A stretch of DNA of 64,000 bases from a virus, in UHGV virus genome UHGV-0084588; one strand, 5' to 3'. Below, piece after piece: positions 7,947-64,000 of this stretch. The position numbers were made by a program, and so were the translations under genes. Under the pieces are notes generated by a model, which saw nothing but the letters and a program-made list of their open reading frames with translations, was not told the origin of the DNA and searched no databases. The first letter of the stretch is position 1. Each line of letters opens with the position of its first letter.

Positions 7947-7985
7947 CGAATTAAATTATAGAAAAGACGTAACAGGAGTATAATA

Positions 7986-9638: not shown

Positions 9639-9653
9639 GGGGCTTCGTGCCCC
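9639..9653 (+). terminator. short GC hairpin after 7986-9638 (weak terminator or RNA-stabilising stem)
   Basis: GGGGC-ttcgt-GCCCC, with only a weak T tract after it. Confidence 0.3.
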
Positions 9654-9682
9654 CTAATCTATAGACACCACAGGACAGTATC

Positions 9683-9931: not shown

Positions 9932-9942
9932 TCGCCCCCACA

Positions 9943-9975
9943 GGAGAGCTTCGGCTCTCCTCCTTTATTTTTATT
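9943..9975 (+). terminator. rho-independent terminator
   Basis: GGAGAGC-ttcg-GCTCTCC followed by tcctttatttttatt. Confidence 0.65.
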
Positions 9976-10019
9976 CCCCAATTTATTATAGCCGCCCACT
10001 ATAGTGAGGGAATGAGGAA

Positions 10020-10319
10020 ATGATTAAATATGTTGTTATTAATGTAAACTACGAACGTAGCCCACGTTTTCGCTTCGAATTACCTGAAACCGAAGCAACC
10101 ATGGAGTTTAATCGCTATTTATTAGAACATTCAAACACCAAAATTAATCACGGTAGATACTGGCTTATCTACTATAATGCCCGTAATGAATTACTGAAAG
10201 CCGTCAAGAAATCAGGTCAGTCGGAGCTGTTAGCGAAACTGATGGCGTACGATAACGATCCCTTAGCAATAGGAGTTATGTTAGACCTTGTTATTAAGAA
10301 AGATGAAATAGCGTGGTGA
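10020..10319 (+). CDS. hypothetical protein (99 aa)
   Basis: ORF with SD gaggaa upstream; ends at a bidirectional terminator. Confidence 0.5.
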   Translation: MIKYVVINVNYERSPRFRFELPETEATMEFNRYLLEHSNTKINHGRYWLIYYNARNELLKAVKKSGQSELLAKLMAYDNDPLAIGVMLDLVIKKDEIAW

Positions 10320-10332
10320 AAAAAGAAAAGCT

Positions 10333-10357
10333 ACTCCGACCCCAGAAGGGTCGGAGT
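10333..10357. terminator. bidirectional terminator between convergent genes
   Basis: ACTCCGACCC-caga-aGGGTCGGAGT flanked by an A-run upstream and ttatttttttttt downstream; lies between 10020-10319 (+) and 10384-13101 (-). Confidence 0.65.
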
Positions 10358-10383
10358 AAGCTCGAATTATTTTTTTTTGCTAT

Positions 10384-13101
10384 TTAGAGGGTTTCATCGG
10401 CGTTGTCGTCTGTACCGGTATCCGTCTCGTCTGTGCCTTCAGCAGAAACGTCTTCTTCCGTTGTCGTATCGGTTTCCGTCGTTTCATCATCAGACATGTC
10501 CAAGTCTTCATCACCGCCCATATCGTCACCTCCTAAGTCCTCATCGCCCCCTAAGCCGCCGTCGTCTTCAGACCCGCCACTGTAGTCACTACCGCCACCG
10601 AAGTTATTGGCGTCCTCAGGATTCAAATCAGCCGCTTTTGCCAAGGTTTCAACTTTACCTGTTGCACGCTTTGCTAACTGAATCAACGTTTTAGATGCTG
10701 ATGCGATTTCATCAGAAATCATCTTGACGTTTTCGCCACGTTTATCTTCGTCGTAGATCAAATCAAACAGATCGGTTTCGATGCCCTGATTGCGTAGCCA
10801 GTTACGCGTATAGAACGATTTAATCATCGTCTTGAGATCATCAGGCTGCATTTCGATACCTTCATTCTGAAGCATATTTGAAATGTCGTCGGTAACAACC
10901 AGATCCGCCAGTTTCTCAATGAACTCATAGCGTTTATCGAACAGATCCGCTTGTGAAGAAGAAGCTGATGTGTCTGGTGGTGGTAAGGTGACTTTCATGC
11001 CATTGATGAACTTCGCCAGATACTCTGACGTTTGCTTGGTCAAGTCTTCACTTGTTACGTTAGGATTTTGATTGCGAATATACTCAACGATAATACGAAT
11101 CAATTCTGCTTGTAACTTAGGAGAGGCTTGCAAACTGTTTGTCACGTAGCGTGTTAACGGCGTAGACAGGATTTCTTGTTTCTTCACGATTTGCTGAGTA
11201 ACCAGCAGTGACTTGGAATAAATCTGCGAAGCAAATTCCAGGTTTTCTGGGGTCAAAACAAGATCCGGGTCTACACACGCGATGTGGCAAGTACGGCGGA
11301 GTAAGTTTTCATCGATTTGCTGATCGGGCACTTTATACTCAGGCGTTGTGTCCGAAACGGACACTTTATGACTGGCGTAGTATTCGTTACCCGTCACGTT
11401 AAATGCAATCCCGGCATTAGCCCCCATTGACCAGGCATCGTTGATATCGCCCCACATCGGTAAACGACGATTATAGGAGTTGAGGATATCCGATTTAACT
11501 TGGTCAACTGTTTTCTGACCGTTCATATCGTCCGGCGATAACTCAATGTCATATTGCATGTGACGCGCTGAGTTCAACACTGAAGAGTTCATTGTTGCGA
11601 ACAACAGCGCCATCCTGACCGTAGAGATGATAAAGGAACGTTCGGTGATAGACACCCCGATACCATCTTCGTTAAAGTCCGTTGCAAAGTAGCATAAGTT
11701 ATTAACCGGGATATAGACAACCTGTGTGTGACGTTTTGCGAGATGACGTGCCAGTAGAATACGACCGAAGGTTTCGGTAATTTTCATGCTGATTTCGGCA
11801 CCACCCAACGCCTGACTTAAAGCGCGGGTAAATTCGTTCTCAGCAATCTCGCTGCAACGTGCGCTTAAACGGTTGGCGATTTCAGGCGTTATACGAGAGG
11901 TATTACCCAAGCCTAAATTAGAGCGGTTGATAATACTGTCTGTCATGCCATCGTTATTAAGGTAGTTCATAAAGTTCGCGTCCCCGTAGAGTGAGGAACG
12001 TGAGTTGATGAAGTTACCCATATCGTCAATAATGGTCAGAAACCCAATAGGGTTACGAACGTCGTCACCAATAACCAACGGGGCGGTAGACTCAGCAGGG
12101 AGTAAGCATTCGAAATAGTCGATCTGGTTGTTTTCATCCATCGAAATAATCGGGATGTTACCATAAAGCTGAGTTTTTGGTGTACTTTTGTACGCTTCGT
12201 TCAGATCACCTAAGTTAATGAAACCTTTTTCAGCCGCATCACGCTGACGATCGTTAAACTGTTGATTAACTTCGTACGGCGCAGCACCTGTCGGTGTGGC
12301 TGGCTTTTCATATGCGGCTTGCTCTAATTGGCCGTAGAGACCAGTACGTGCGTTCTCATGCGCGATTCGACGATAAGCATGGGGCAGTAACGTGATACGT
12401 GGGTTGTCGGTAATCGAGATGTCCATTTCGAACTTATCTGAGAACATCTTATCATGGTTACTGAAATTGATTTTCAGTGATTGTGGTCCTTTAACAGGTC
12501 CACGGACACGGCTCAGAATAGATTCCACACCCACCCGTTGTCCGTCTTCTTGCGCGTTAATTGGGCCGAGAATACCGAGTTGTTCTTCGAAATAGGCGGC
12601 TTGAGAACGACGCATGGATTCGGTAGCGACTTTGGTGTCTAAACCGAATAGCTGGTCAAATCCATTGTCCGAGATTATCATCACTGGACTTGCGCCTTTT
12701 GTTTTTAACGCGTCGTAAATCCACTGATATAATTTCTTAGGTAATTGACGTACGTTATCATGGTAATCGCGCGTTGGCGTCAGTAAGTCATTACGTAAGT
12801 CAATTGGAATGTCTGCGATGTTGTCGTAAATCAACGTGGTGTTGATTAAGTCTTTTGTCGACAGCAAGCTCGAAGTTGCAATGGTAACAATCGTTTCGAG
12901 TTCAGGTAACGCATCAAAGATACGTTCCGCGCTTTTGATAGTACGAATACGCGAACTTACAATTCCTGCAAGTTCTTGACGTGTTGGCGTAGAACCACCC
13001 TCGCTACGCGTACCGCGTTGTTGCTGGGGTGCTGGGCCCGTAGTTTTACGAAGAATTGCAGCTACGGCGGGGTCGCCCGTTAATTTACTAATATCGTCCA
13101 T
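10384..13101 (-). CDS. large hypothetical protein with acidic Gly/Asp/Glu/Thr-rich C-terminal tail (905 aa), possibly virion-associated
   Basis: Long minus-strand ORF; last 90 aa are poly-acidic low complexity. A portal-like role is a guess from size only. Confidence 0.6.
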   Translation of the reverse strand: MDDISKLTGDPAVAAILRKTTGPAPQQQRGTRSEGGSTPTRQELAGIVSSRIRTIKSAERIFDALPELETIVTIATSSLLSTKDLINTTLIYDNIADIPIDLRNDLLTPTRDYHDNVRQLPKKLYQWIYDALKTKGASPVMIISDNGFDQLFGLDTKVATESMRRSQAAYFEEQLGILGPINAQEDGQRVGVESILSRVRGPVKGPQSLKINFSNHDKMFSDKFEMDISITDNPRITLLPHAYRRIAHENARTGLYGQLEQAAYEKPATPTGAAPYEVNQQFNDRQRDAAEKGFINLGDLNEAYKSTPKTQLYGNIPIISMDENNQIDYFECLLPAESTAPLVIGDDVRNPIGFLTIIDDMGNFINSRSSLYGDANFMNYLNNDGMTDSIINRSNLGLGNTSRITPEIANRLSARCSEIAENEFTRALSQALGGAEISMKITETFGRILLARHLAKRHTQVVYIPVNNLCYFATDFNEDGIGVSITERSFIISTVRMALLFATMNSSVLNSARHMQYDIELSPDDMNGQKTVDQVKSDILNSYNRRLPMWGDINDAWSMGANAGIAFNVTGNEYYASHKVSVSDTTPEYKVPDQQIDENLLRRTCHIACVDPDLVLTPENLEFASQIYSKSLLVTQQIVKKQEILSTPLTRYVTNSLQASPKLQAELIRIIVEYIRNQNPNVTSEDLTKQTSEYLAKFINGMKVTLPPPDTSASSSQADLFDKRYEFIEKLADLVVTDDISNMLQNEGIEMQPDDLKTMIKSFYTRNWLRNQGIETDLFDLIYDEDKRGENVKMISDEIASASKTLIQLAKRATGKVETLAKAADLNPEDANNFGGGSDYSGGSEDDGGLGGDEDLGGDDMGGDEDLDMSDDETTETDTTTEEDVSAEGTDETDTGTDDNADETL

Positions 13102-13112
13102 TGGGGTCTCCG

Positions 13113-15296
13113 ATGCAGAGATTTAACATATTTCGTGATCAGAACATCGCGTTGGCGAAATCACTGATTATTAAATCAGAATCAATCGCGCAACAGATGA
13201 ATCTGGCAATAACCGAGAACGGCGGTTTCGTTTCCGATAACCGTAGTACGTGGCGATACTACCTGCATTTAGCAGGACAACGTCACGAAATGGATAAACC
13301 CATTTACATAACGTCGCTCGACACGCAAGAGCAGATAGAATTAACGACAGCCAACCTGTCCCGTCATAAAAAGACCTCTAACGTTTTTCGTTCGAATGCT
13401 GAGTATATTGAGGCATTGATCGCAACTTATCCTGAATACGCGATTTATATTCGCGGCGTCTTTACGCCAATCGATTTAAACTACGCGTTACGTGTAGACG
13501 ACTGTTCTATTTTGTACTACGACAGTTCGTTGGTAGAATCACAAGAGACGTCCTTGATTAGCCGTCTGGAGGCGAGAATTCGTGCAGCCCACGTCCGTTA
13601 CATGGCTGAGGGTTGGAAGGTCCACAACGACGCGTTTGTGTTAGCTTTCTATTGCATGTTGTTTCCGCAGCTACCAGGCATAATTGGCTATATTCGTTCT
13701 TCTTTACAGCATACGACAGAAACACACTCTTTCTTCGTTACCGAATTTTTAGCTTCGCATCAGGAACTGCACGAGTTTATGCCGTACCTGACTCAGAAAC
13801 AAAAATTCATTCTTTATCGAAATATTCGATACTGGGAACGTAACTCAGGGAAAGAAGAGATCTTCGATTGGCAAATCGATGCGCTACTGACAGGTTGGGG
13901 AATGCCTGCGGTCGGGTATAATGTTGCGCAGCAGATTCACGAACCGAAAGATAACGATGATAATTCCTTAACACCGTTGCCTATCGGTTATCAGCAATCT
14001 TTAAACTACACAGAGAAAGACTCTGGACGCGATTTGGATATTGTTACTACTACGGACATAATCCAAAAAGAGGTGGGGTTAGCGTATAATAACCCGGCGT
14101 ACGAACCGGAGTATCAAGAAGACCTAGACACACGGCTGAGTCTGACACAGTATCCCAACTTAACGACGAAGCTCGTAGAAGTAACCGCCGTTGACCCAGA
14201 AGCTATTGAGCGTTTTGAATACACACATAACCTCTTTAATGAATGGGTACATTTGGTAGCGAAGGGAAAATACAGCATCTACCACGAGATTCTTAACCCG
14301 ACAAACGGCGACACGTTAAAACTGAGTTCGAAAGAGCTGTTGGCGCTGTTTTTGTACGCGACGTATAAAGGTTACTCCGATGTTGCACTTGAAGAAATCC
14401 CCGTATTTAACGTTTTTGATGTCTTGATTAAACGTTGGGTTTCGTTCGATGAAATGGAACAACATCTTATCCCGAGTTGGGAACACCGTTTCGACGCACT
14501 GATTAACTATTACACCGACACCCACACCGAAGTGGTCGGAACGATTCTCAGTGCCGATGAACTTTACGACACGGTTAATGAAATTATCTTACAGAAACGC
14601 CGTCGTTGGCGTTATAGTCAAAACCGTCGTAAGATTCCCGACCGTGCTGCGGGTTTAATGTTGTTCGATTACCACTATCGCGATTACCGATGCGATTTAA
14701 AGTTAAAGTATCGTAACTACGACGAGTTCTTTAAGACCTTCGGTTTAGACTACACACTGGTCTCCGCAGAAACGTGGCAAGATATCGCAGTCGATGCATT
14801 GAACACCGCAACAAACCTTGAAACGCGTGCAACTATTTCGCAATCTGAAATACAGCGTGCGATGGTCCGATTAATGACCAAGCTTTCGTCGTATACCGTA
14901 CATTTTGCTGCGCGGATGGGGTCAGATTCTTACGACGTTATGGACCCGCTTTGTCCGATCTTAGGGGATATCCCTATGAGTGGGGAGGGTACAGTTACCA
15001 TCATTGAACCTCTCTTAGGCGTACAGTCAGTTACGCGACACCAATACATGACGACGGACAAAGTGCTCCCCGCAGCGCCGGTGATTAAAGAGCTGTCCAT
15101 GCCGCAACACATCAAACTACGGATGAACATTTACATGGGTATCCGTGTGAGAGTGAATCAGCAAGTCGTGGTGGATATTAATGAACCGACCACCGGGGTT
15201 GTTAAGGTCAAGTCTTCACTTGACGACTGGGCGTTAAACGAACAGGTGAAAATTAACGATCTCGAAGGGTTTACGTTAGACCAGCTACCTAAGTGA
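13113..15296 (+). CDS. hypothetical protein (about 727 aa)
   Basis: Long ORF; I prefer the ATG at 13113 over the TTG at 13101 given by the track. No Walker A motif seen, so I do not call it a terminase. Confidence 0.6.
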   Translation: MQRFNIFRDQNIALAKSLIIKSESIAQQMNLAITENGGFVSDNRSTWRYYLHLAGQRHEMDKPIYITSLDTQEQIELTTANLSRHKKTSNVFRSNAEYIEALIATYPEYAIYIRGVFTPIDLNYALRVDDCSILYYDSSLVESQETSLISRLEARIRAAHVRYMAEGWKVHNDAFVLAFYCMLFPQLPGIIGYIRSSLQHTTETHSFFVTEFLASHQELHEFMPYLTQKQKFILYRNIRYWERNSGKEEIFDWQIDALLTGWGMPAVGYNVAQQIHEPKDNDDNSLTPLPIGYQQSLNYTEKDSGRDLDIVTTTDIIQKEVGLAYNNPAYEPEYQEDLDTRLSLTQYPNLTTKLVEVTAVDPEAIERFEYTHNLFNEWVHLVAKGKYSIYHEILNPTNGDTLKLSSKELLALFLYATYKGYSDVALEEIPVFNVFDVLIKRWVSFDEMEQHLIPSWEHRFDALINYYTDTHTEVVGTILSADELYDTVNEIILQKRRRWRYSQNRRKIPDRAAGLMLFDYHYRDYRCDLKLKYRNYDEFFKTFGLDYTLVSAETWQDIAVDALNTATNLETRATISQSEIQRAMVRLMTKLSSYTVHFAARMGSDSYDVMDPLCPILGDIPMSGEGTVTIIEPLLGVQSVTRHQYMTTDKVLPAAPVIKELSMPQHIKLRMNIYMGIRVRVNQQVVVDINEPTTGVVKVKSSLDDWALNEQVKINDLEGFTLDQLPK

Positions 15297-15303
15297 GAAA
15301 ACC

Positions 15304-15831
15304 ATGGCATATCGTGTCGATTTAACGAAAGCACCTAAACAAATTTTAGTAGACCGGATTAACTACGTATTTAGTCTATCCTATACTGCTGATAACATCG
15401 AGTTTAACGCAAACGGCGTTCAACCACTAACTTTAGCAGAACGTCAACGTTACGGGCTAGAATCAAAGGTTGCTGCCGTCTTCCGTAACGGCGTTGTCGG
15501 AAACCAGGAATTCATTTTAACTCGCGTTGATTTGGCAACGTTCCTGGCCGATGAACCGGTGAGTGTACCGAAAGGCGCAGTAACGTCCAGCGAAGAGTTG
15601 GCCGATTATATCGTTGCGCAAACAGGGATTGACCTGCGTGCCGACGACATTATGATTGAGCCGATTTCAGAGGAGCTGGATTCTTATGATGTTCGTCTCG
15701 TCCCGAATCATTTGTCTTTTAAAGGAACGATTCCGGTCGTATTTACTGATTCCACTCCACGCAAATTGGCGTCTCTTGTGACGAAATTGGCGTTGGATGG
15801 GTTCCGCCCAGGAGAATTAATCAATGTCTAA
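15304..15831 (+). CDS. hypothetical protein (175 aa)
   Basis: ORF 8 nt after the previous stop, same strand. Confidence 0.55.
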   Translation: MAYRVDLTKAPKQILVDRINYVFSLSYTADNIEFNANGVQPLTLAERQRYGLESKVAAVFRNGVVGNQEFILTRVDLATFLADEPVSVPKGAVTSSEELADYIVAQTGIDLRADDIMIEPISEELDSYDVRLVPNHLSFKGTIPVVFTDSTPRKLASLVTKLALDGFRPGELINV

Positions 15832-54510: not shown

Positions 54511-55041
54511 ATGGCTAAAACCTTCCAACAGCAACTTATTGACGCTGTTAATACCAAAAACAGTACCCTGGACCCCGCACTCACCGTAGCTGATGTTGAC
54601 TTTGGTGCTGTTGCTGAGTTCACCGGAGAAGCTGGCCGCAACACTAAAATTACCCTGACCGCCAAGGAAGAAAGCCAGCACTTCAAGGGCGAGAAAGAAT
54701 TCCACTATACTCGTCTTTCATGCGACATCGTTGGTGAAGTTGAAGTAACTGCACCTGCTACCGATTTCGATTCAGCAGCGAAAATCCTGGCGAAAGTTAA
54801 CGCAGCCATGGCTGAGAAAGGGTACACCGATGACGAGTTCGGTGAAAACGACCTGCAAAGTATTTCTCGTGAAGAAGAAGGCAAAACCATTTACGTAGTA
54901 ACTGTTGTGGCCGGACACCTGAAGTTCCTGCCAGGCACTGTTGCAACGTATAAAGTTACTCCTCCGGCTCCTGAGAAAGTAGCACTGGACGGTCTGGAAG
55001 GTGAACTGGATAGCTTCACTGCACCGCTTCCTAAAGAGTAA
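54511..55041 (+). CDS. member of the six-copy paralogous family, codon-biased (176 aa)
   Basis: Family pattern; host-like codon bias suggests high expression; a sigma70-like -10 element lies upstream. Confidence 0.6.
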   Translation: MAKTFQQQLIDAVNTKNSTLDPALTVADVDFGAVAEFTGEAGRNTKITLTAKEESQHFKGEKEFHYTRLSCDIVGEVEVTAPATDFDSAAKILAKVNAAMAEKGYTDDEFGENDLQSISREEEGKTIYVVTVVAGHLKFLPGTVATYKVTPPAPEKVALDGLEGELDSFTAPLPKE

Positions 55042-55106: not shown

Positions 55107-55637
55107 ATGGCCGCTACTAACCAGATGATGTTGGTCGCGCTTTATAATGCTGCTAACACTGAGCTACCACATCAGATTACTGATAAAGAAGTGTCCTTTG
55201 GTCTCCCTACTGCGCTGGAAGGCAAAAGTAAGAATACCAAAGTTACCATGACTGCACTACCGGGTTCTGAGAATTTCAAAGGCGCAATCGAGCTGCATTA
55301 CGATCGTCTGGAGCCGGGTGTTGTAGGACGTATTGAACTAACTGACGATTTGTCTCGTTGGGAAGATCAAAACGAATTGCGCGCATGGTTACAATATTAC
55401 ATCAACAAAGTAAAACCTGACGACGCTATCGCACCTGGTGACGTTGTGTACAGCACCGAAGACCAGAAAGACGAACATGATAACGTCACACTGCGTACGG
55501 TAACGTGCACCGTTACTGAAAAGAACCTCCGTTATAAACCGGGTGTAATGGCAACTTTCGTAATTACGCCGAAAGTTGTTGACAATCGTATTGACCTGGC
55601 CACTACCAACGGCGAGCTGGACGGCTTTACGTCCTAA
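55107..55637 (+). CDS. member of the six-copy paralogous family (176 aa)
   Basis: Family pattern; bidirectional terminator downstream. Confidence 0.6.
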   Translation: MAATNQMMLVALYNAANTELPHQITDKEVSFGLPTALEGKSKNTKVTMTALPGSENFKGAIELHYDRLEPGVVGRIELTDDLSRWEDQNELRAWLQYYINKVKPDDAIAPGDVVYSTEDQKDEHDNVTLRTVTCTVTEKNLRYKPGVMATFVITPKVVDNRIDLATTNGELDGFTS

Positions 55638-55638
55638 G

Positions 55639-55691
55639 AAAAATAAAAAAATACCTACCTCCCGTAATAGGAGGTAGGTATATCTTTTTTT
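55639..55691. terminator. bidirectional terminator between convergent blocks
   Basis: aaaaataaaaaaa-TACCTACCTCC-cgtaata-GGAGGTAGGTA-tatcttttttt; lies between 55107-55637 (+) and 55701-56372 (-). Confidence 0.65.
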
Positions 55692-55700: not shown

Positions 55701-56372
55701 TTACAGCCCTTGCTCTAACGCAAACGCTTTTATCGAATCGTAATCACGCGCCTCAGCCCAAGCCCTGACTTCTTTTTTCTGCTCAGACATTGCGTGGTGT
55801 AGTCTTTGATCACGCGCAACGATTGCTGCCATCAGCGCTTTGCACTGCTCTAACGAAAAAGGTTCGATGCGGGTGTTAGCCGTGTCCAACCAATAACTCG
55901 GTGCTGTTTCAGACTGGATATACTGGCCCAACATTTGACGAGACGTTTCGTCCGCTTGGAAGTAGCGACCATCGACTTCAATATATCCGTGGCGCTGATC
56001 TTCATAACGGTGTTCCATCTCCAACATGATTTTCTGGATATCGAGATAGATGTAACGCGCCGTCGAACGCATATTCGTTCGAATCTCTTCCAGGTTAATC
56101 TCCAGAACGTCAGTAATGAATTCTTTTGCTTTGTTCAGTGTAAACTTCGACTCGATAGGAGACATTTCGTAAGTTTTCATCTGGGCTAAAGCTTCTTCAT
56201 CACTCATCCCTTCAATCAACTTGTAGTGCAGTAATGCACAGAACCCCGTACGTCCACGGTCTTCGTTACCTACACGTTCCATGTAGTTACCATGGCGGTC
56301 AATTGGTAGATCGTGCGCGAAATAACGTGCGCGAATCTCTTCTTTCGTTAAGCTTTTGTTAGAAGCAGACAT
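55701..56372 (-). CDS. hypothetical protein, last gene of the radical SAM operon (223 aa)
   Basis: ORF overlapping the upstream gene; HD..H-like motif near the N-terminus is too weak to call. Confidence 0.5.
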   Translation of the reverse strand: MSASNKSLTKEEIRARYFAHDLPIDRHGNYMERVGNEDRGRTGFCALLHYKLIEGMSDEEALAQMKTYEMSPIESKFTLNKAKEFITDVLEINLEEIRTNMRSTARYIYLDIQKIMLEMEHRYEDQRHGYIEVDGRYFQADETSRQMLGQYIQSETAPSYWLDTANTRIEPFSLEQCKALMAAIVARDQRLHHAMSEQKKEVRAWAEARDYDSIKAFALEQGL

Positions 56373-56938
56373 TCTTCTTCTCCAACCATACCTAATTCTT
56401 GCAGCAAGCCAAAATCAATCAACTGGAAGGTTTCAGAGAGATCGTTTGACCACACCACGTTTGCAATGTCGCGTTCTTCATCGGATAATTGCGGTAACAC
56501 ATTTTCGTTGAACGTCTGATGCTCTACGTAATAAGCATCGTAGATAGACGTAGAACGCAAGCAACGGATTGGCAGTCTTGGGAAAGACACCGCTAATGCA
56601 GCAATAGATGCGCTGCTCGGATTCTCCGCAGAATAGCGAAGCAATTCGATTTTGTGGCGCGGATAGTCCAGTACGCGTTGCTCGAAACCCGGATTACGTT
56701 TTTCGATTTCAACAACGGACTCATGACCTGTTTCTGTACAGTAAACGGGAATCATCACGTTTAGCCCGTACTTAATTAACAGAGGTTTAATCTCATCTGT
56801 AAAGTCTTCGCCAGGGATAATGGCGTGAACGTTATAGAGTTTATGTTTGCGCAGAAAACGCTCAACCAGATGGAGTTTACGCTTCGTAAAATTGTGGATC
56901 AGAATTGATTTCATTATTTGCCTCAGTAGGTTGTGCAT
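56348..56938 (-). CDS. hypothetical protein in the radical SAM operon (188-196 aa)
   Basis: ORF overlapping the rSAM gene stop; an alternative ATG at 56914 has SD gagg. Confidence 0.5.
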   Translation of the reverse strand: MHNLLRQIMKSILIHNFTKRKLHLVERFLRKHKLYNVHAIIPGEDFTDEIKPLLIKYGLNVMIPVYCTETGHESVVEIEKRNPGFEQRVLDYPRHKIELLRYSAENPSSASIAALAVSFPRLPIRCLRSTSIYDAYYVEHQTFNENVLPQLSDEERDIANVVWSNDLSETFQLIDFGLLQELGMVGEEECLLLTKA

Positions 56939-58211
56939 TTAAAGCACGTTTAGCTTGCTCACGCTCACGCGTACATTTCGGACAGTAACAAACAGACGAA
57001 TCGTGCAGTGACGATGCGTGGACGGTACCCGTACGTTGACGCCAGTATTCTGCTGCCATCAGTTTTGCGGTCGTCCAGCCACATTGACGACGTTCAGCGT
57101 GGTACGCCTTACGGTCTTCCAGTGTCCCTTCACCGTTTTCGTAGGAAGCAGCTGCACAGCTGCCACAACCGTGTTTCATCGGACAGCCTAAGCACGTTTC
57201 AGGGTAGTTAGTATATTGCGTCTGAATCTCTTCCAGCAGCTTCCCGTCATCTAAACTAACGAACTCGCGACCAACTAATTCAAACACCGCAGAACGTGAC
57301 GTTACCGTTGACATAAAACGGTTACAACCGTATACCTTGCGGTCAAAACCTAAACAGGTCATGAACGTTAACGTACCACAGAACGGACGTAGGCGATCTG
57401 GGTTATAACGATGCGTGTCGTCATACAGCAGCTTATCGCGCCAATCTGGGTCCCAAATCTGACGGAAATCCAGACCTTCGGGAATGATATGTGACAACAC
57501 GTTACGTGGATTGGTGTGCAACCCTTTCTCAATCCAATAATCCATCACGTCGATCATCTGCAACGCAATATCCGTTGCCATGCTCCGTGGAAGAATATCT
57601 TCGTACGTAACGTTACCTGAAATCGTACCGCCACCGGCAACATCGATTAGCGATTTCATACTCGCTGCATAATGCGGTAACGTTTCGGTCGTAAAGGTTG
57701 CCTTGATACCCAGTTCAGCAATACCGACTTCTTTTAAGTAGTTATAGCCACGAACAGCGGCTTCGTAAGAACCTTGACGCGTCGTGGTAAAGATACGATA
57801 GCGGTCATGGACTTCTGGTAAACCGTCGATAGAAACACCGATGGAGAGTTTGTCTTTCCAACGCTCAACAATCTCACGGTTTAACGGGCGATCTAACAAC
57901 GTACCGTTAGTTGAGATACTGAACATATACGGGCGATTGTGCTCCTTACACAACTGTTCTGCGGTTTCGAACGCCGCTAACAGCAGTTTCGGTTGCATAA
58001 AAGGCTCACCGCCGATGATATCAATAATGACGTCGATGTTCGGAATATCTTTATCGCGCTCAAAACACGCGTGTAAGAAATCCACGATATCCGCCGCTTT
58101 GTTATTACGCGGATACTTACGTTCGTAACAATACTCACAGTCTAAGTTACAAGACAGATTCGTTACCACCTGGTAAGTACGTTGAGAACGTGGTGCTTCA
58201 TTATTGCTCAT
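56877..58211 (-). CDS. radical SAM enzyme with C-terminal SPASM-like Cys-rich domain (444 aa), candidate peptide maturase
   Basis: Canonical CNLDCEYC (CxxxCxxC) near the N-terminus; C-terminal clusters FCGTLTFMTCLG...GCNRF and CLGCPMKHGCGSCAAA fit the auxiliary Fe-S pattern of SPASM/twitch domains. Confidence 0.75.
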   Translation of the reverse strand: MSNNEAPRSQRTYQVVTNLSCNLDCEYCYERKYPRNNKAADIVDFLHACFERDKDIPNIDVIIDIIGGEPFMQPKLLLAAFETAEQLCKEHNRPYMFSISTNGTLLDRPLNREIVERWKDKLSIGVSIDGLPEVHDRYRIFTTTRQGSYEAAVRGYNYLKEVGIAELGIKATFTTETLPHYAASMKSLIDVAGGGTISGNVTYEDILPRSMATDIALQMIDVMDYWIEKGLHTNPRNVLSHIIPEGLDFRQIWDPDWRDKLLYDDTHRYNPDRLRPFCGTLTFMTCLGFDRKVYGCNRFMSTVTSRSAVFELVGREFVSLDDGKLLEEIQTQYTNYPETCLGCPMKHGCGSCAAASYENGEGTLEDRKAYHAERRQCGWTTAKLMAAEYWRQRTGTVHASSLHDSSVCYCPKCTREREQAKRALNAQPTEANNEINSDPQFYEA

Positions 58212-59118
58212 CTTTGCTTATCCTTTTACGCTCTGCATAAATCACGCGTTTAATGTACTCGTAAGCACCTACTCCAATAGAGCAAGCGAGCTGATTGCAG
58301 CCACCGTTTAAGATAGCTGGGGCATTCTGAAGCTGATGTTCTGTTCCATCTGCGTTCAAATACAACTCTTCGCTACAAACATTACACTCGTTTTCGAAAA
58401 TCTTGCTGACAGACACGCCGCACGATTCTCCAGTTTGGACGTTCAACCGTTCCATATTCTCCTGAATTTTTAAATAGCCATAAACGAAGTTCATGACGTG
58501 ATCAGGAGACAATGGTTTTGGCATCTGCGCATCAAACATTAGAGAAAACGCACGGGGACGATAGTGGTACATCGCACGATGCAAATCCACAATATCTTCA
58601 TACCAGCGCTTATCCGCTAACTGGTCACGCGTAATCACAGCCCAGGTTTGGAAATTATCGAGTTCGTATAACGCTTCCAATGCTTCGTGGCTATCCTCTT
58701 CAATAAAGCGCATAAAAGGGCGCTCAGAACGCTTGTAGCCATCAATTGATACAAACACATGCTCAAAGTCTTTTAGCAGCGTAAGATGCGATTTACGCAG
58801 TTTTAAGCCGTTGGTATACAAGTGATGCTCAAGGTGCGGATGAGACACTTTCAATTCGTTAACGAAATCCTCAATCTTACGTTGGACGAGTAGCGGCTCG
58901 CCACCGGTCCAATGTATTTCCTTAATAGCCGGATTCTCTTGTAGTAATTCCAGGATACGTTCGCGTTGAAAAGCACGAGACGAATCTTCACGATTCATGT
59001 AGTAGGCTCCACCGCAGAAACTACAATCTAGGTTACACTTAGACGTCGTAACTACGGACAATATAGTGGGTTTATCGTACAACTTCGTCGAGATCCTGGA
59101 TTCCACATTGTCTATCAT
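58201..59118 (-). CDS. radical SAM enzyme (305 aa)
   Basis: CNLDCSFCGG (CxxxCxxC) motif; GGEPLL glycine-rich SAM motif; C-terminal CNVCSE...GGCNQLACS Cys cluster; overlaps the downstream rSAM gene by 11 nt. Confidence 0.7.
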   Translation of the reverse strand: MIDNVESRISTKLYDKPTILSVVTTSKCNLDCSFCGGAYYMNREDSSRAFQRERILELLQENPAIKEIHWTGGEPLLVQRKIEDFVNELKVSHPHLEHHLYTNGLKLRKSHLTLLKDFEHVFVSIDGYKRSERPFMRFIEEDSHEALEALYELDNFQTWAVITRDQLADKRWYEDIVDLHRAMYHYRPRAFSLMFDAQMPKPLSPDHVMNFVYGYLKIQENMERLNVQTGESCGVSVSKIFENECNVCSEELYLNADGTEHQLQNAPAILNGGCNQLACSIGVGAYEYIKRVIYAERKRISKDEQ

Positions 59119-59138
59119 TGCAGGTTGCTCCAGTATTT

Positions 59139-60026
59139 TTAAATATAATCGATGGCGAATAAAGGATCTTCGTCGAAGTTAACACCTGGTTTTAAAATCA
59201 GTGGTGAATTATACGCTTCCAGTAAACGGTTAAGTTCGTTGTAGCGGCTATTCATCCGTTTGAGGTCTTCTAAGGTTACAACACGGTCCAGCATCGGTTT
59301 AACCGCTGCGGCTTCCTCGTCAGTCAATTTAACTTTCGACAACAGGAAACTGACGAGTTTAGAAATGTCCGCTTCGGTGGCTGGACTCTGACCGAAACGT
59401 ACCTGAACCATGTGCTGCATCCACGGTTTACGAATGCGTTTCGTAATCACGTGTTCGTCAGTAATGGCTTTCCAAACCGAACGCTCACGAATCCATTCAA
59501 ACTTATAGCTGTACGCCATTAAGTCAGCCAGATGCGTAATTCCGAGTTCTTGATAACCTTCAATATCGATATACGGTTCCGTATCAAAATACTCTTTGGT
59601 ATCCTTTTCAACCAAAGCGTAGTAGTTAGGGAACGCACCCAGGTAGTCTGGGCTCCACCAACGACGGGCCATCGGTTTAGCATCGAGTTCTTCAAACGGC
59701 GTGAACATAAGTTCTAAGTCAACTGTATTATTTAACACACCGTCGCTAAAGAAATATTTGCCGTCGATAAGTTTACCGCGTTGTGAGTTATCACCGGTAA
59801 AGACAACAATGCTTTCGCCAACCATATCACGAATTTTAAACGTGTTCTCAACCGTAAAGTTGTCACGATTAGCGATATGACGGCCGCGCACTTTCGGCCA
59901 TTCCCCAGGAATCATGGCAATTAAACGTACGTCGTCGGCAAGATGGTGACGTACCGAATCAGGGGAAGAGATGTGAAGTGGATGATTGAACGTTGTCGTA
60001 TATGCAAGATGTAGATCGTTCTTCAT
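59139..60026 (-). CDS. hypothetical protein between the peptide genes and the rSAM genes (295 aa)
   Basis: ORF in operon; function unassigned (could be a leader-recognition or processing protein). Confidence 0.55.
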   Translation of the reverse strand: MKNDLHLAYTTTFNHPLHISSPDSVRHHLADDVRLIAMIPGEWPKVRGRHIANRDNFTVENTFKIRDMVGESIVVFTGDNSQRGKLIDGKYFFSDGVLNNTVDLELMFTPFEELDAKPMARRWWSPDYLGAFPNYYALVEKDTKEYFDTEPYIDIEGYQELGITHLADLMAYSYKFEWIRERSVWKAITDEHVITKRIRKPWMQHMVQVRFGQSPATEADISKLVSFLLSKVKLTDEEAAAVKPMLDRVVTLEDLKRMNSRYNELNRLLEAYNSPLILKPGVNFDEDPLFAIDYI

Positions 60027-60094
60027 TGATTACTCCAATTATTTCACGGTCAAACGGTCATTCAGGCTATAGAGTCTACCACTGGAGGGTTTAC

Positions 60095-60301
60095 TTACCT
60101 TCCCCCCGCACCTTTACTACAGCTACCACTGCACGCCCAGCTACAACTGCCGTTACAGTTATAGTGGGTTAATGGTAATCCTGCCAAGTTATTCGTCGTG
60201 GACACCGTACCTTGGTTAGCGATGTAGTTATTCGCGTCTGAGGTTTTGATGTAGCCTTCAACCTGACCGATTCTGTCTCGAATATTTTTGAGGGAAATCA
60301 C
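60095..60301 (-). CDS. Cys-rich peptide, short paralog (68 aa), candidate RiPP-type precursor
   Basis: GTG start with SD ggaggt; hydrophilic leader then core CNGSCSWACSGSCSKGAGGR. Confidence 0.55.
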   Translation of the reverse strand: MISLKNIRDRIGQVEGYIKTSDANNYIANQGTVSTTNNLAGLPLTHYNCNGSCSWACSGSCSKGAGGR

Positions 60302-60311
60302 TTCTCACCTC

Positions 60312-60707
60312 CTATCGTCCTGTACACGCTGAGCAACCGCCAGTACAGCTACTGGAACACGATGCTGTGCACCCGCCAGAACAAGTGCCTGAGCACAGGT
60401 TAGCACACCCACCTGAACAACTCCCCGAGCACCCTGAACACGAAGTGGAACACCCTGACGTACAGTTTGCAGAACATGAGGAACCACAACCGCCGGACGC
60501 GTTCCCAGTACACCCACCAGAACAACTCGAACAGGTAAACGAACACGTACCCGCACAGTCGTAATGCGCACGATTCTGACCGCCGAACAGGTCTGCGTTA
60601 TTCGTACCTTTATTGCGGATATAGTTCTGTACACCCGTGGTATTTTTCAGTGCGATACTATCGACGTTATTAAGACGTCTTACTAATTCAGATAAACCGA
60701 CTGCCAT
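60312..60707 (-). CDS. Cys-rich CXXX-repeat peptide (131 aa), candidate RiPP-type precursor
   Basis: ATG with SD gggggaag; about 50-aa leader then an 80-aa core with roughly 22 Cys at mostly 4-residue spacing in a Gly/Ser/Thr matrix. Confidence 0.6.
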   Translation of the reverse strand: MAVGLSELVRRLNNVDSIALKNTTGVQNYIRNKGTNNADLFGGQNRAHYDCAGTCSFTCSSCSGGCTGNASGGCGSSCSANCTSGCSTSCSGCSGSCSGGCANLCSGTCSGGCTASCSSSCTGGCSACTGR

Positions 60708-60716
60708 TTCTTCCCC

Positions 60717-61109
60717 CTATCGTCCAGAGCATCCGCCGGAGCAAGCACCCGAACAGTTATGCGAACAACGTCCAGTACAACTTCCGGTACAGGTACTTGT
60801 ACAACTGCTAGAACAACCGCCAGAACAGCCAGAGCATCCTGAACAGTTACCCCCACAGGACGAAGAACAGCTACCCACACAAGCGGCTGAACAGTTACCT
60901 GAACAGCTAGAGCAACCGTGACTACATCCGTTAGAACATGTCCACGAACACGTTCCTCCGCAGTCTAAACGTGAAGGTGTCCAACCAGAAAACGAATCTG
61001 CCGCGTTATGCGCTTTCGATGCGACCTGCGCATCGACACGAGGGCCGGTAGCGACTGTATTTTCTACTACGGTTAACCGATCGCGCATTTGTTTAACACT
61101 AATCGCCAT
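60717..61109 (-). CDS. Cys-rich CXXX-repeat peptide (130 aa), candidate RiPP-type precursor
   Basis: ATG with SD aggaag; leader then core CGGTCSWTCSNGCSHGCSSCSGNCSAAC... with roughly 21 Cys, ending GR. Confidence 0.6.
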   Translation of the reverse strand: MAISVKQMRDRLTVVENTVATGPRVDAQVASKAHNAADSFSGWTPSRLDCGGTCSWTCSNGCSHGCSSCSGNCSAACVGSCSSSCGGNCSGCSGCSGGCSSSCTSTCTGSCTGRCSHNCSGACSGGCSGR

Positions 61110-61174
61110 TACGCTTCCTTAAAATTAAAATAGAGGAGGAACCAGCCATAAGCATAGTTCCTCCTGTAATAAAA

Positions 61175-62374
61175 TTATCTCGTACCTGCTTCTGCCTGAA
61201 CGTCATCACGGGACGTCAAGTTAGCGTTAACGTGCACTGAAGCCTGAACCACACCGCCGTATTTCTTGTGCAGGTAACCTGTGTGTGGGTTATCCGCCGC
61301 AATATGGTTTTGTAGGTTCTGATTCGCCTGACTGATTGCGTTCGTGTTATTCGCAACCTGTTGTTTAAGCGCATCCAAGTTTTGTTGCAGATTATCAATT
61401 TTCTGATCGGTCTCATTACCCCGCTGTTCTAACGCAGCAATGCGCTGAATCGCTTGGTTGAGCTTGGTGTTCAGATCGTTGATATTTTTCTGTAACTGTA
61501 ACACTAACGAGTTTAGGTTCGCCAGTGCCAGTGCCATTTTCTGGTAGTTTTGTGCAACGACGTTAAGTTGGTCGTTCCACGCTTCCAGAGATTTGACAAC
61601 AGCATCAATACGTTTTCCTAACGCTTCGTCCGCTTTCTTCAATGCGTTGATTTCAGTAATCGTTGCATCAATGGCAGACTGCACGTCGCGGATAAGCGCA
61701 CGGATTTCCGTTTCCGTTAACCCGTTAACCTGATGAATATCCAGATGGTGGACATTACCAGTGGAGTTAATGTGCGCGTTCAGCGCGTCCAGGAAATCGT
61801 TTTTCAGGCTATCGAGAATCGCTTTGATGTTCTCAAGCTGTACAGCATCGCCCGCAGTTATCGCATCTTTAATACCGGCGAGCACTGTAATGATGTATTC
61901 GAAGCCGTAGATATCGCCGACGTCTTTATACGTTGGTGCCGAAGGAAACGTGTCCGGCACATTTCGCAAGTCTTTAAAGCCAACAGTTCGATTATCGAGA
62001 TTCAACTCGGCAATCGCTTGCTCAATCGCGGTCACAACTGCAGACTGTGGACCACCAACTACTTGCGCCGATACCGTGATATCGGTCGGAATCGCGGTGT
62101 TCGTTACAACAACCGCCATTACTACTTCCCGGTTCTTCGTCAATTTCTCGTAAGCCGGGTGTGCAAAAATCAGCTCATAGTCCGTTCCACGCTCATACGT
62201 CGCTCCAGGTCGATTGGCAACCCGCAAGCGGAACGTATCGGCATAAAACGGGCCATCAGGGAAAGCAAACGCACGGTTAACTTTACCTGTACCTAACGTA
62301 ATCTGACGCTCCACGGCGTTAGAGGTTAGGGTTCCCGTTAAATCTAAAGGGTATTGGTATACAATGGAGGCCAT
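61175..62374 (-). CDS. fibre-like protein with long coiled-coil segment (about 400 aa)
   Basis: Track ORF 61175-62482 trimmed to the ATG at 62374 (SD aaggagag); central Q/N/L/A-rich heptad region typical of fibrous phage proteins. Confidence 0.55.
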   Translation of the reverse strand: MASIVYQYPLDLTGTLTSNAVERQITLGTGKVNRAFAFPDGPFYADTFRLRVANRPGATYERGTDYELIFAHPAYEKLTKNREVVMAVVVTNTAIPTDITVSAQVVGGPQSAVVTAIEQAIAELNLDNRTVGFKDLRNVPDTFPSAPTYKDVGDIYGFEYIITVLAGIKDAITAGDAVQLENIKAILDSLKNDFLDALNAHINSTGNVHHLDIHQVNGLTETEIRALIRDVQSAIDATITEINALKKADEALGKRIDAVVKSLEAWNDQLNVVAQNYQKMALALANLNSLVLQLQKNINDLNTKLNQAIQRIAALEQRGNETDQKIDNLQQNLDALKQQVANNTNAISQANQNLQNHIAADNPHTGYLHKKYGGVVQASVHVNANLTSRDDVQAEAGTR

Positions 62375-62414
62375 GGCCACTCTCCTTAATCCGAGACGTC
62401 CTTGTCTCGTGGCG

Positions 62415-64000
62415 TTAAGATGTAAACATAAGATTGAACTGGAGCTTATCGATATCGCGAGTTTGTGCTGGGTTAACCGCATCGTACGTGGTTGCCACGT
62501 AGACCGTTAACGTGCCGTCAGAAAACGCGGTTTTCACCGGTGGTGTAGTCCCTGTCTGTCCATCAGTTACAATGACGACAGGTTGAGCCGGGAGTTGACG
62601 AAACTGACTCTTAACCGCTTTATACACCAAACCAGATTGTGCCGCTTGCTCTGTGGCGGTGTACACGATAAACGGTGTGTCGATATCTGTCTGTTTAATG
62701 ACAGTGTTCGTCTCAACGTCAATCAGCTGAACAGCACCAAATTTGGTCCGGTAACTATCGTATTCATTTTTTGGAATGACAAACGTAGCATGAAGGCGGA
62801 CTTCGGCGGCTGGCTTAAATCCCGCGTGTTCTTTTTCCAGGTAACTGTTAGCAGTTAGCGTTACTGTCTGTTCAGTCATCGTACCGCCAGACTGATTTAG
62901 CCCGTAACGAACTTGAGTTATACCTGTCGGGGCCGCAAGCCTGATTTTCAGTCGACGATTAGTAGTACCAGGATCGCCAGGTACTTTAACACGCAGACTC
63001 AATGCCAGATATGCATACTCGCCGGTAGTCGGTTTCGTATACGCACCCAACCACTTCATGTTCGCGGTTGCTGCTTGTTTGTTCTCAGAAGCAGTAGCCG
63101 CTGCAACGTTCGCAGCAACCGCTTTCTGCCAGAACTGGTCAGCGCAGTTCTCATACGCCACCCTGCTGATACTTTTATAACCTGAATAGGTTTCCTGTAC
63201 CGGCAACCTGGGCCGCGTTGCAATCCCGGACAACGTATTCCATTTCTGGCCATCGACATACCCAGCACCCTTGCTCGCAGATGCTGTAATGGCTTTAACG
63301 GGTTTATTAACCACTGTTAATAGTGGACCAGTTTTCCTGTCGAACGCCTGCGCCACATCGTGCTGATCAACAACCGAGGCATGATTTTCCAGCTCTTTTA
63401 CACGACCTAACCGTTTTACTTTATCGATACTGATATCCGTAATACGGTTCGAATCAGTGGTTACTGTCCCAACAAACAGTCTCGACGAGGTATCAGCTAA
63501 CTGCTCTAAACCGATGCGGTATTGGGCAGTAGAACCGACCACTTCAGCATAAACGTAGAATGTCTGGTTAGCGTGATTAGTCGGGAATTCATCGCTTAAA
63601 TCAACGGACCATCTTGGAACGGTATATCTTTTATTTCCAAAACTTAACTCGGTTTCCTCCGTCAGATAGAAATTCCAACCGCTCTGTGTTTGTACGCCGC
63701 CAATAATAATCTTATCGATAACAGTATATTTTTTGTTAAACAAATCAGAGATTCTATACTGTTCGCCACCGAGATACAACTCGTTTAAATCTTCCGAGTT
63801 ACAAGTCAATAGCGCGATGCCCGAGAGATCGGGTATATAGACTTCAGATGTATTATTCAGCGTATACGTATAGCCCCACGCCCGATGAATTTCGCCGGTA
63901 AACCATTCTCCTTTTTTAGTCAAGTTTATCCCAAAAGCAAAAGAAATCTCTGATCCTACAAGATTCCCGCCAACCAGGTTATGTATTGAGAATCTGAACT
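62415..64000 (-). CDS. large structural-type protein, 5' end outside the window (partial)
   Basis: Reading frame stays open from 62415 to the window edge; the TTG at 63923 given by the track is probably not the true start. Confidence 0.5.
   Translation of the reverse strand, partial: FRFSIHNLVGGNLVGSEISFAFGINLTKKGEWFTGEIHRAWGYTYTLNNTSEVYIPDLSGIALLTCNSEDLNELYLGGEQYRISDLFNKKYTVIDKIIIGGVQTQSGWNFYLTEETELSFGNKRYTVPRWSVDLSDEFPTNHANQTFYVYAEVVGSTAQYRIGLEQLADTSSRLFVGTVTTDSNRITDISIDKVKRLGRVKELENHASVVDQHDVAQAFDRKTGPLLTVVNKPVKAITASASKGAGYVDGQKWNTLSGIATRPRLPVQETYSGYKSISRVAYENCADQFWQKAVAANVAAATASENKQAATANMKWLGAYTKPTTGEYAYLALSLRVKVPGDPGTTNRRLKIRLAAPTGITQVRYGLNQSGGTMTEQTVTLTANSYLEKEHAGFKPAAEVRLHATFVIPKNEYDSYRTKFGAVQLIDVETNTVIKQTDIDTPFIVYTATEQAAQSGLVYKAVKSQFRQLPAQPVVIVTDGQTGTTPPVKTAFSDGTLTVYVATTYDAVNPAQTRDIDKLQFNLMFTS

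Follow-up and report, generated by a model that had tools for sequence, protein, structure and literature searches.

Cysteine-rich CXXX-repeat proteins as candidate radical-SAM-modified parts of a tail-fibre module in an SPN3US-like jumbo phage

The described system closest to the locus treated here is the CXXX-repeat radical S-adenosylmethionine (SAM) target system, in which maturases of the family TIGR04115 are paired with targets of the families TIGR04114, TIGR04117 and PF27846. This enzyme-target pair is already known as a curated, uncharacterised kind and rests on bioinformatic prediction only; the literature searched contained no experimental paper on the CXXX-repeat/TIGR04115 system, no link between this system and tail fibres and no study of the radical SAM enzymes of Salmonella phage SPN3US. 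The closest characterised enzymes are PapB, which forms the CX3D/E thioethers of freyrasin, and CteB, the SCIFF maturase of thermocellin. A precedent for a radical SAM enzyme that cross-links a protein and not a natural product is provided by QhpD, a SPASM-type enzyme that installs Cys-to-Asp/Glu thioethers in QhpC, a structural subunit of quinohemoprotein amine dehydrogenase. Phage structural proteins that are reinforced post-translationally are known as well, with the isopeptide chainmail of the HK97 capsid and the Fe-His ladder of T4 gp37 as examples. Here, a stretch of 64,000 nucleotides of the UHGV virus genome UHGV-0084588 (the window) is analysed with respect to three genes for cysteine-rich proteins, termed pepA, pepB and pepC, that are located between two tail genes and two radical SAM genes. 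It is considered probable, with a rough probability of 0.6, that their products are radical-SAM-cross-linked tail-fibre parts within a tail-fibre module at 55701-64000 and not a diffusible peptide.

The window phage is an SPN3US-like jumbo phage. Ten minus-strand genes form a single block at 55701-64000, and the remainder of the window is mostly plus strand. In the 5' to 3' direction, the block consists of a gp168-like gene, a gp167-like gene, pepA, pepB, pepC, a gene for a protein of 295 amino acids (aa), a 305-aa radical SAM enzyme, a 444-aa radical SAM enzyme, an open reading frame (ORF) of ~190 aa and a 223-aa ORF (Table 1). It is gene-for-gene syntenic with gp161-gp168 of SPN3US, a locus of Seoulvirus and of related Erwinia jumbo phages, and a comparison of the blocks demonstrated the same gene order in Erwinia phage pEa_SNUABM_29. 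Nucleotide identity over the enzyme genes amounts to ~74%, which is the best value to any named phage and marks the window phage as a distinct member. At the protein level, every block gene save the gp168 C-terminus is 66-84% identical to its SPN3US counterpart (pepA 79%, pepB 73%, pepC 79%, the gp165-like protein 74%, the two radical SAM enzymes 72% and 84%). Like the CXXX-repeat radical SAM target system, the locus combines a Cys at every fourth residue with an adjacent SPASM enzyme on the same strand. Unlike that system, it contains a second radical SAM enzyme and a gp165-like protein, and it lacks the ~110-aa partner of gut-phage cassettes. Since the accessory set differs and the enzyme scores below the TIGR04115 cutoff of 350 bits, the window version is regarded as a variant and not as a member of this system.

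A Shine-Dalgarno sequence precedes each of the three peptide genes, and the comparison with SPN3US yields pN values (proportions of nonsynonymous differences) of 0.15-0.22 and pS values (proportions of synonymous differences) of 0.69-0.71, the latter being saturated, which corresponds to a dN/dS ratio of ~0.08-0.12 (0.08 for pepA). Given this ratio, pepA, pepB and pepC are real genes and no chance ORFs. The Cys spacing, including the irregular spacings of 3 and a single spacing of 8, is identical in three phages. Among 42 Cys-Cys spacings, 35 are 4, six are 3 and one is 8, and the repeat unit can be written as C-[ST]-G-[SGT]. In the 14 related loci retrieved from the IMG/VR database (L008-L021), pepA contains 21 Cys without exception, pepB contains 20 or 23 and pepC contains 4, and these counts hold even where the identity of the N-terminal domain drops to 47%. 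A pepC gene was not found in three of these 14 clade loci (L015, L020 and L021); its orthologues are kept in SPN3US and pEa_SNUABM_29.

All three proteins share an N-terminal domain of ~48 aa that is predicted to be helical at residues 5-34, with hydrophobic residues spaced by 3-4, and that is followed by a junction. In pepA, the N-terminal helix and junction (49 aa) lead into the Cys run, and pepC exhibits the same N-terminal domain and junction as pepA and pepB with 4 Cys only. The junction consensus is N-N/A-x-x-L/F-x-G-x5-Y-D/N-C-x-G-x-C-S-W/F-x-C-S, after which the C-[S/T]-G-[S/G/T] units begin. The junction of pepB, NNADLFGGQNRAHYDCAGTCSFTCSS, aligns with the junctions of fibre-CXXX fusion proteins, and a phmmer comparison of pepB with one of these proteins (from locus L114, described below) gave 40 bits. 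The peptide N-terminal domain is carried by 56 phage records, and phrog_6085, the family of pepA-C, is a PHROG of unknown function. The target families of the CXXX-repeat system are reached via relatives: precomputed PF27846 ('tSAM_targ_Cxxx_rpt') annotations exist for P0003, P0006, P0007, P0009, P0121 and P0154, and weak matches to TIGR04117 and TIGR04114 were obtained for P0006, P0007 and P0009. Profile searches against PDB returned no significant match for the peptide N-terminal domain or for the 'type 2' N-terminal domain of gut phages.

Among NCBIfam families, TIGR04115 ('radical SAM peptide maturase, CXXX-repeat target family') matches the 444-aa enzyme best (E = 6e-36, 124.7 bits), followed by the ranthipeptide maturase PapB (E = 4e-32) and other SPASM enzymes that form thioethers or cross-links, and the closest solved structure is CteB (5wgg, E = 8e-13). 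The CX3CX2C motif, CNLDCEYC, is intact, and the SPASM Cys columns C288, C306, C355, C358, C364 and C367 align with those of the enzymes from L022 and L003. Judged by sequence, this enzyme is related to the TIGR04115 family but has diverged from it. Its radical SAM core starts at residue ~20 as opposed to ~106 in CteB, and there is no N-terminal extension of the type of a RiPP recognition element (RRE; RiPP, ribosomally synthesised and post-translationally modified peptide). With this CteB-type extension missing, substrate recognition might be supplied by partner proteins. The 305-aa enzyme contains a CX3CX2C motif and has homologues in the cassettes of L114 and L120; searches of Pfam and NCBIfam returned only generic radical SAM matches and no full SPASM match for it. 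Both enzyme genes are located on the same strand as the peptide genes, ~1 kb downstream of pepC. In L013, which belongs to one sub-lineage of the jumbo clade, a third radical SAM enzyme (303 aa, a paralogue of the 305-aa enzyme) is encoded between pepA and pepB at 9027-9938, and L014 shows the same ORF spacing, which alone places the extra enzyme there. This arrangement hints that the small radical SAM enzymes are peptide- or target-specific. For the gp165-like 295-aa protein, a confident structural model was obtained (predicted local distance difference test score, pLDDT, of 88) for which no fold relative was detected, and its role may be target presentation or scaffolding. The possibility that the ~110-aa partner proteins of gut phages correspond to a part of gp165 was rejected, as hhalign indicated no relation. 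The first-pass annotation of this DNA had suggested that the maturation of the Cys-rich proteins needs the radical SAM enzymes. This suggestion is supported at the level of families, by phrog_6085, the PF27846 relatives and the best match to TIGR04115, and it stays a prediction for pepA, pepB and pepC themselves.

The assignment to a tail-fibre module starts from the genes upstream of pepA. It had been noticed in the first-pass annotation that the Cys-rich genes lie directly downstream of fibre-like genes on the same strand; the coordinates agree with this description, and the orthologue of the nearest upstream gene, gp167, is a tail protein according to mass spectrometry (MS). The gp167-like protein is composed of a ~200-aa N-terminal domain, a coiled coil at ~220-370 and a short C-terminal segment. 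Residues ~220-370 produced solely coiled-coil-type matches in Pfam and NCBIfam, so that the earlier label of a coiled-coil fibre-like gene is confirmed. Over its full length, the protein is 78% identical to SPN3US gp167, 'virion structural protein 20', and its family phrog_2163 is annotated as 'virion structural protein'. Further upstream, a large structural-type gene had been described as running off the window, and its frame indeed remains open for 528 codons up to the window edge without an upstream stop. This gp168 counterpart aligns to positions 1220-1708 of the 1714-position phrog_7449, and the full gene encodes 1728 aa in the close uncultured relative L008. Its C-terminus is 29% identical to SPN3US gp168 by BLASTP (28% by global alignment), far below the 72-84% of the flanking cassette genes; compared with L008, identity is 76% for this C-terminus and 95% for the pepB N-terminus. 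Rapid divergence of this kind is expected for a host-range determinant or receptor-binding protein, and the gp168-like C-terminus is probably such a host-range determinant.

For SPN3US, MS analyses identified gp167, gp168, gp169 and gp170 in the virion and assigned gp167 and gp168 to the tail, with 880 peptide-spectrum matches for gp167 in virions versus 5 in tailless heads, and the radical SAM protein gp163 was classed as non-virion (PMC5694885, PMC10052503). These published proteomes are silent on pepA-C: the true ORFs are missing from the SPN3US annotation (the 2023 proteomics database comprised 273 sequences), and the Cys-rich cores are nearly devoid of tryptic sites in a predicted digest. 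Predicted tryptic peptides of the SPN3US proteins include VQIVEANMATGPR, IDAQVASK and FGGWTK for pepA as well as LNTIDANALK, NTTNVQNYIR and ATNNADLFAGQGR for pepB, and the corresponding list for the window phage contains LTVVENTVATGPR, AHNAADSFSGWTPSR, LNNVDSIALK, GTNNADLFGGQNR and IGQVEGYIK. A direct test is feasible in SPN3US, for which a published amber-mutant collection and virion proteomics are available.

The proximity to tail genes is a recurrent property of these enzymes, and the cassette closes tail modules in a number of phage lineages unrelated to one another. An alignment of the radical SAM enzymes was used to scan IMG/VR, and detailed counts refer to the best 80 loci. At least 278 stretches encode a TIGR04115-like radical SAM enzyme. 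Of the best 80 loci, 77 have a CXXX ORF of 48-829 aa with up to 103 consecutive Cys close upstream of the enzyme gene and on its strand, and in ten representative loci an ORF of ~100-130 aa is inserted between the CXXX gene and the enzyme gene. The genes just upstream match tail, tail-fibre or baseplate(-wedge) PHROGs in eight of these ten representatives; the two remaining references contain a Peptidase_G2 IMC autocleaving domain, which is known in tail spikes, and ALK_LTK_GRD domains only, respectively. By blastx, a homologue of one of the ten upstream proteins is present within 8 kb upstream in 73 of the 80 loci, and the seven exceptions are mostly truncated contigs. Genes resembling tail fibres or targets of diversity-generating retroelements (DGRs) border the cassette on both sides in L007, L029, L030 and L033, a tail-fibre-like protein is encoded between the target gene and the enzyme gene in L029, and the same tail-linked layout is found in the short independent contigs L007 and L022. 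Downstream neighbours comprise an endolysin (L043 and L100), a tail-fibre protein (L030), a DGR-target-like gene (L033) and replication genes (L026).

The same four-gene cassette was detected in bacterial genomes, in two of which the CXXX run and fibre-like sequence belong to one protein. Loci L114 (Deferribacter abyssi) and L116 (Desulfoluna butyratoxydans), both of which look like prophages, contain a central tail fibre J gene (phrog_31), two small genes, a CXXX protein of 302 aa or 257 aa, a gp165-like gene (phrog_8030, E = 2e-11 for the L114 copy), a small radical SAM gene and a large radical SAM gene. The large enzymes of these two loci match the window enzyme with 253-275 bits, well above its TIGR04115 score, and the range extends to 229-275 bits if the enzyme of L120 is included. 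Locus L120, from a metagenome-assembled genome of Thalassospiraceae, encodes a 607-aa tail-fibre protein followed by a 79-aa CXXX peptide, a protein that takes the place of gp165 without significant homology to it (E 0.84) and two radical SAM enzymes. An explanation of L120 as a frameshifted fibre-CXXX fusion was discarded, as a separate ribosome-binding site and start codon (ATG) serve the CXXX gene. The combination of two radical SAM enzymes, a gp165-like protein and a target is a distinct sub-type, of which the window provides an example.

The tail-fibre-like proteins of L114 and L116, in which the CXXX run forms the C-terminal domain, contain an N-terminal 'D-x-R-x-x-I-N-x-N-F' motif and H-x-H-D-x-R-Y-Y-T-E repeats. 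The L116 protein (P0058) matches Pfam PF12789, which we take to be the 'phage tail repeat like' family, and its C-terminal CXXX run is joined via NADQLGGQAGSYYRCSDCSWTCSS, a junction that matches the one of pepB. Other tail-fibre-like N-termini combined with CXXX runs were observed in P0067, P0121, P0154, P0174, P0179 and P0196. The tail-fibre identity of these fusion N-termini is based on motif recognition, with a family model for PF12789 only, and BLAST and phmmer revealed no similarity between them and gp167. A profile search of 1.84 billion cluster representatives recovered 543 relatives at E <= 1e-3, of which 116 reach E <= 1e-10. The junction is present in 37 of the best 150 representatives (60-1803 aa) at positions anywhere from residue 38 to 471, and it follows coiled coils or tail-fibre-like N-termini, as in P0196 (with GIIRLATNAEVAAGTPTNVAVNPSQL repeats), P0154, P0179, P0209 and P0211. 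Because the junctions of the fusions match, the window peptides can be viewed as the minimal stand-alone form of a module that otherwise resides on longer fibre-like proteins.

These features can be combined into a model for the locus. The proteins pepA, pepB and pepC would be translated late, each representing a minimal fibre module with a helical, coiled-coil-like N-terminus, a conserved junction of the form N-A/N-x-x-L/F-x-G-x4-5-Y-D/R-C-x-G-x-C-S-W/F-T-C-S and a rod of C-[S/T]-G-x units. The 444-aa SPASM enzyme would then install serial intramolecular cross-links that start from the Cys sulfurs of the Cys-X3 units, in line with the serial small rings that PapB and CteB generate on a repeated Cys-X3 motif. 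By analogy to PapB, CteB and QhpD, the links would most likely be thioethers that connect the sulfur to a carbon atom in a neighbouring Ser, Thr or Gly residue; unlike in PapB, the acceptors would not be Asp or Glu. Further differences to PapB and CteB are the absence of a protease or exporter from the window cluster, the absence of an RRE-type extension, and targets of up to hundreds of residues that are encoded in tail modules. QhpC differs in being an enzyme subunit that receives 3 links instead of about 20 and that has no phage context; TIGR03906 is found among the matches of bona fide TIGR04115-family members. The second radical SAM enzyme and the gp165-like protein might perform a second modification, contribute to substrate recognition or presentation, or both. 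The repeat numbers (21, 20 and 4 Cys) are strictly fixed, which suggests that the rods have a set length. The N-terminal helices could bundle chains or dock on the gp167 coiled coil or on the gp168-170 fibres, and the stiffened, redox-insensitive filaments would join the baseplate/tail-fibre apparatus together with the gp167-like and gp168-like proteins. The enzymes would remain outside the particle, since SPN3US gp163 is a non-virion protein. Reinforcement in HK97 and T4 gp37 is autocatalytic or metal-based, whereas dedicated radical enzymes would be required here.

A hairpin with a U-tract separates the gp167-like stop codon from pepA (-19.8 kcal/mol, z = -4.9), and hairpins of -18 to -24 kcal/mol (z = -5.4 to -6.8) with differing stem sequences are located at this position in five other clade members. 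In these six phages, the structure is kept by compensatory changes in the stem, and the loop core 'TATGG' is invariant. Conservation was assessed by folding each sequence separately; RNAalifold on a MAFFT alignment recovered 4 pairs only, owing to indels. The hairpin could be an attenuator or an RNA-stability element, or it could overlap with a promoter for a phage RNA polymerase. Its presence means that a position on the same strand and directly downstream is no proof of equal co-transcription. A scan for sigma-70 promoters gave results at or below chance and has no informative value for a phage equipped with RNA polymerases of its own.

Several observations weigh against a role of pepA-C in the tail fibre. 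The conserved hairpin after the gp167-like gene implies that the peptides and enzymes may be expressed at a level other than that of the fibre gene. The peptides themselves have no NCBIfam match at E <= 0.01, and the 444-aa enzyme stays below the TIGR04115 cutoff with only residues 16-233 matched (the L022 and L003 enzymes score 463 and 335 bits for comparison). A monomer model of pepB generated with AlphaFold2 from the family alignment was uninformative, with a pLDDT of 46, a helix at 5-34 only and disorder in the rest. No similarity was detected by BLAST and phmmer between the peptide N-termini and the putative partners gp167 and gp168, nor with gp165, gp162 and gp161. In the chromosomes of Clostridia and other Bacillota (L106-L113), TIGR04115-like radical SAM enzymes are encoded beside one or two CXXX peptides of 50-77 aa whose leaders of roughly 15-35 aa (e.g. 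MKHLFDESLTTTYVAGCSSCGTQC...) resemble those of ordinary RiPP precursors, so that diffusible peptides and structural proteins may both occur in the family. The cassettes of L043 and L100 adjoin an endolysin gene, and the end of a tail module is a classic site of accessory ('moron') genes. Finally, gp161-166 are unlisted in the SPN3US virion proteomes (PMC5694885, PMC10052503).

Some of these points would be explained if the window peptides were diffusible RiPPs, i.e. ranthipeptide- or sactipeptide-like precursors with a 48-aa leader whose products leave the cell upon lysis and act as a bacteriocin, a signal or a factor against competitors, with the cassette being a moron. The nearest characterised relatives, PapB and CteB/SCIFF, do make RiPPs, the Clostridial loci pair related enzymes with precursor-like peptides, the cassette is separated from the fibre gene by a terminator-like hairpin, and the neighbouring lysis gene in L043 and L100 marks a common accessory-gene site. 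The window cluster contains no leader peptidase, exporter or immunity gene, however, and no recognisable peptidase or transporter domain was identified in any of the ten block genes with Pfam, NCBIfam and PHROG. The layout of the peptides is that of a leader and a core, but the N-terminal domain and junction are conserved to the same degree as the core, and a homologous junction is found inside tail-fibre-like proteins. Relatives with up to ~100 Cys in proteins of 165-829 aa and with fibre-like or receptor-type fusions are implausible as diffusible peptides, and the trio with its Cys counts is a fixed trait of a strictly lytic clade of jumbo phages. A diffusible product is therefore judged unlikely. 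A role inside the infected cell, in which the cross-linked CXXX proteins do not stay with the particle and serve as a transient scaffold or chaperone while fibres are assembled, or buffer redox state or metals, appears less likely still. It would agree with the missing gp161-166 entries for SPN3US virions and with the DUF4376 domain of the gp161-like protein, which also occurs in tail-associated PHROGs, and tail-fibre modules often encode non-structural assembly factors, such as T4 gp38/gp57 and Tfa. Yet a CXXX run that is covalently fused to a full-length fibre-like protein would stay with the fibre, and three paralogues with strictly fixed repeat numbers are more in keeping with a structural element of set length than with a chaperone.

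It was also considered that the CXXX runs are no radical SAM substrates, that metal-ion ladders or disulfides stabilise the fibre and that the enzymes modify another protein, a nucleotide or a cofactor. Trimeric fibres are stabilised by metals in T4 gp37 (Fe) and gp12 (Zn), and the 305-aa enzyme has generic radical SAM matches only. This explanation is nevertheless highly improbable in view of the CXXX ORF that accompanies a TIGR04115-type SPASM enzyme in 77 out of the 80 viral loci as well as in all members of the clade, the extra small radical SAM gene between pepA and pepB (L013, and L014 by ORF spacing) and the fact that family curators have already named this enzyme/target pair accordingly. 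The preferred reading, cross-linked parts of the tail fibre, had been raised in the first-pass annotation as a virion or fibre role; comparative genomics argues for it through tail-module linkage, fusions and the lack of an exporter or peptidase in the cluster, and incorporation into the virion and the attachment partner are predictions. The terms 'metal-binding' and 'decoration' that were applied to the Cys-rich proteins are guesses. In a wider sense, radical SAM 'RiPP' enzymes might constitute a widespread tool of phage morphogenesis that staples CXXX rods with tens of thioethers per chain, the family then serving mainly for virion fibres from gut phages to jumbo phages; the chances of this generalisation are considered about even.

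As far as the searchable literature shows, the systematic association of CXXX/radical SAM cassettes with phage tail modules and the fusion of CXXX runs to tail-fibre-like proteins appear to be new. If the proposed fibre role is true, the cross-links would be the first enzyme-installed radical cross-links known in a virus particle, and a predicted 'RiPP' family would be reassigned from natural-product biosynthesis to virion construction, a change that matters for genome-mining pipelines, in which such phage loci would at present be taken for bacteriocin clusters. Phage structures would gain a post-translational reinforcement that depends on oxygen-sensitive Fe-S enzymes, with consequences for phage production, stability and host range in aerobic as opposed to anaerobic growth.

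Table 1. Features of the minus-strand block and its boundary in the 64,000-nt window of UHGV-0084588
Feature	Coordinates	Strand	Family or evidence
gp168-like baseplate/tail-fibre gene, C-terminal 528 codons, runs off the window	62415..64000	-	phrog_7449
gp167-like tail gene, 399 aa	61175..62374	-	phrog_2163; 78% identity to SPN3US gp167
Hairpin with U-rich tract, intrinsic-terminator-like, in the gap between the gp167-like gene and pepA	61121..61165	-	fold energy
pepA, CXXX-repeat protein, 130 aa, 21 Cys	60717..61109	-	phrog_6085, E = 2.7e-37
pepB, CXXX-repeat protein, 131 aa, 20 Cys	60312..60707	-	phrog_6085, E = 8.6e-43
pepC, short paralogue, 68 aa, 4 Cys	60095..60301	-	phrog_6085, E = 1.2e-25
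gp165-like protein, 295 aa, orphan fold, conserved cassette partner	59139..60026	-	
Small radical SAM enzyme, 305 aa, gp164-like	58201..59118	-	PF04055, E = 8.5e-15
Radical SAM/SPASM enzyme, 444 aa, gp163-like, predicted cross-linking maturase	56877..58211	-	TIGR04115 best match
gp162-like protein, ~188-196 aa	56348..56938	-	phrog_7988
gp161-like protein, 223 aa, DUF4376	55701..56372	-	PF14301, E = 3.9e-10; phrog_8169
Bidirectional terminator-like hairpin at the 3' end of the minus-strand block	55651..55681	.	12-13 bp stem

The two distal genes of the block are less informative. The gp162-like protein is 69% identical to SPN3US gp162, and searches with Pfam and NCBIfam were empty; the gp161-like protein shows weak matches to phrog_2837 ('tail protein') and phrog_1807 ('tail fiber protein'). 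The hairpin that follows has a perfect stem of 12-13 bp with T-runs on both strands and stands between the plus-strand head genes and the minus-strand block, which converge on it. Scans of the window with Rfam models and for tRNAs gave no matches.

The comparison with annotated relatives also corrects public annotation, since three conserved genes are absent or mis-framed in SPN3US-like genomes. In SPN3US (JN641803, L001 11408-12437), the call SPN3US_0166 covers pepB in a wrong frame, and no annotation exists for pepA and pepC. In pEa_SNUABM_29 (L002 11413-12435), the annotated genes 00267 and 00268 run antisense to the CXXX genes and are 'PEQ-rich' artefacts. For SPN3US gp164, the annotated length is 795 nt, although the conserved ORF at the same place encodes 305 aa.

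Among the other viral contigs, several unusual cassettes were observed. L100 encodes an 816-aa protein (4754-7204) in which ~230 aa of N-terminal CXXX repeats are fused to two ALK/LTK glycine-rich domains (PF12810), next to an 888-aa protein with three ALK_LTK_GRD domains (1781-4447). The contigs L003 and L004 (175-179 kb), in which TAG is recoded, harbour an expanded cluster at 7366-15567 with three radical SAM genes, CXXX proteins of 262 and 200 aa, three small uncharacterised ORFs and a 200-aa repeat protein of the 'NGTCSN' type. In L007, a DGR-carrying phage, the radical SAM homologue beside the CXXX protein (2578-3609) has kept its SPASM part and lacks the CX3CX2C motif, and it may be a pseudo-enzyme or a damaged gene. 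The gut-phage CXXX proteins of L029 (3974-5476) and L028 (6248-7576) reach 442-500 aa with 86-103 consecutive Cys at a spacing of 3-4 residues, and their Cys runs are preceded by a conserved ~120-aa 'ITAxxLxxLKxKVKxEMxRR' domain without a PDB relative. Outside the block, the plus-strand genes at 54511-55041 and 55107-55637 encode tandem 176-aa paralogues with 31% mutual identity. The protein encoded at 54511-55041 shares 45% identity with SPN3US gp160, which is abundant in the head and belongs to paralogue family B, and at the gp160 position SPN3US has one copy and pEa_SNUABM_29 three ORFs of similar size.

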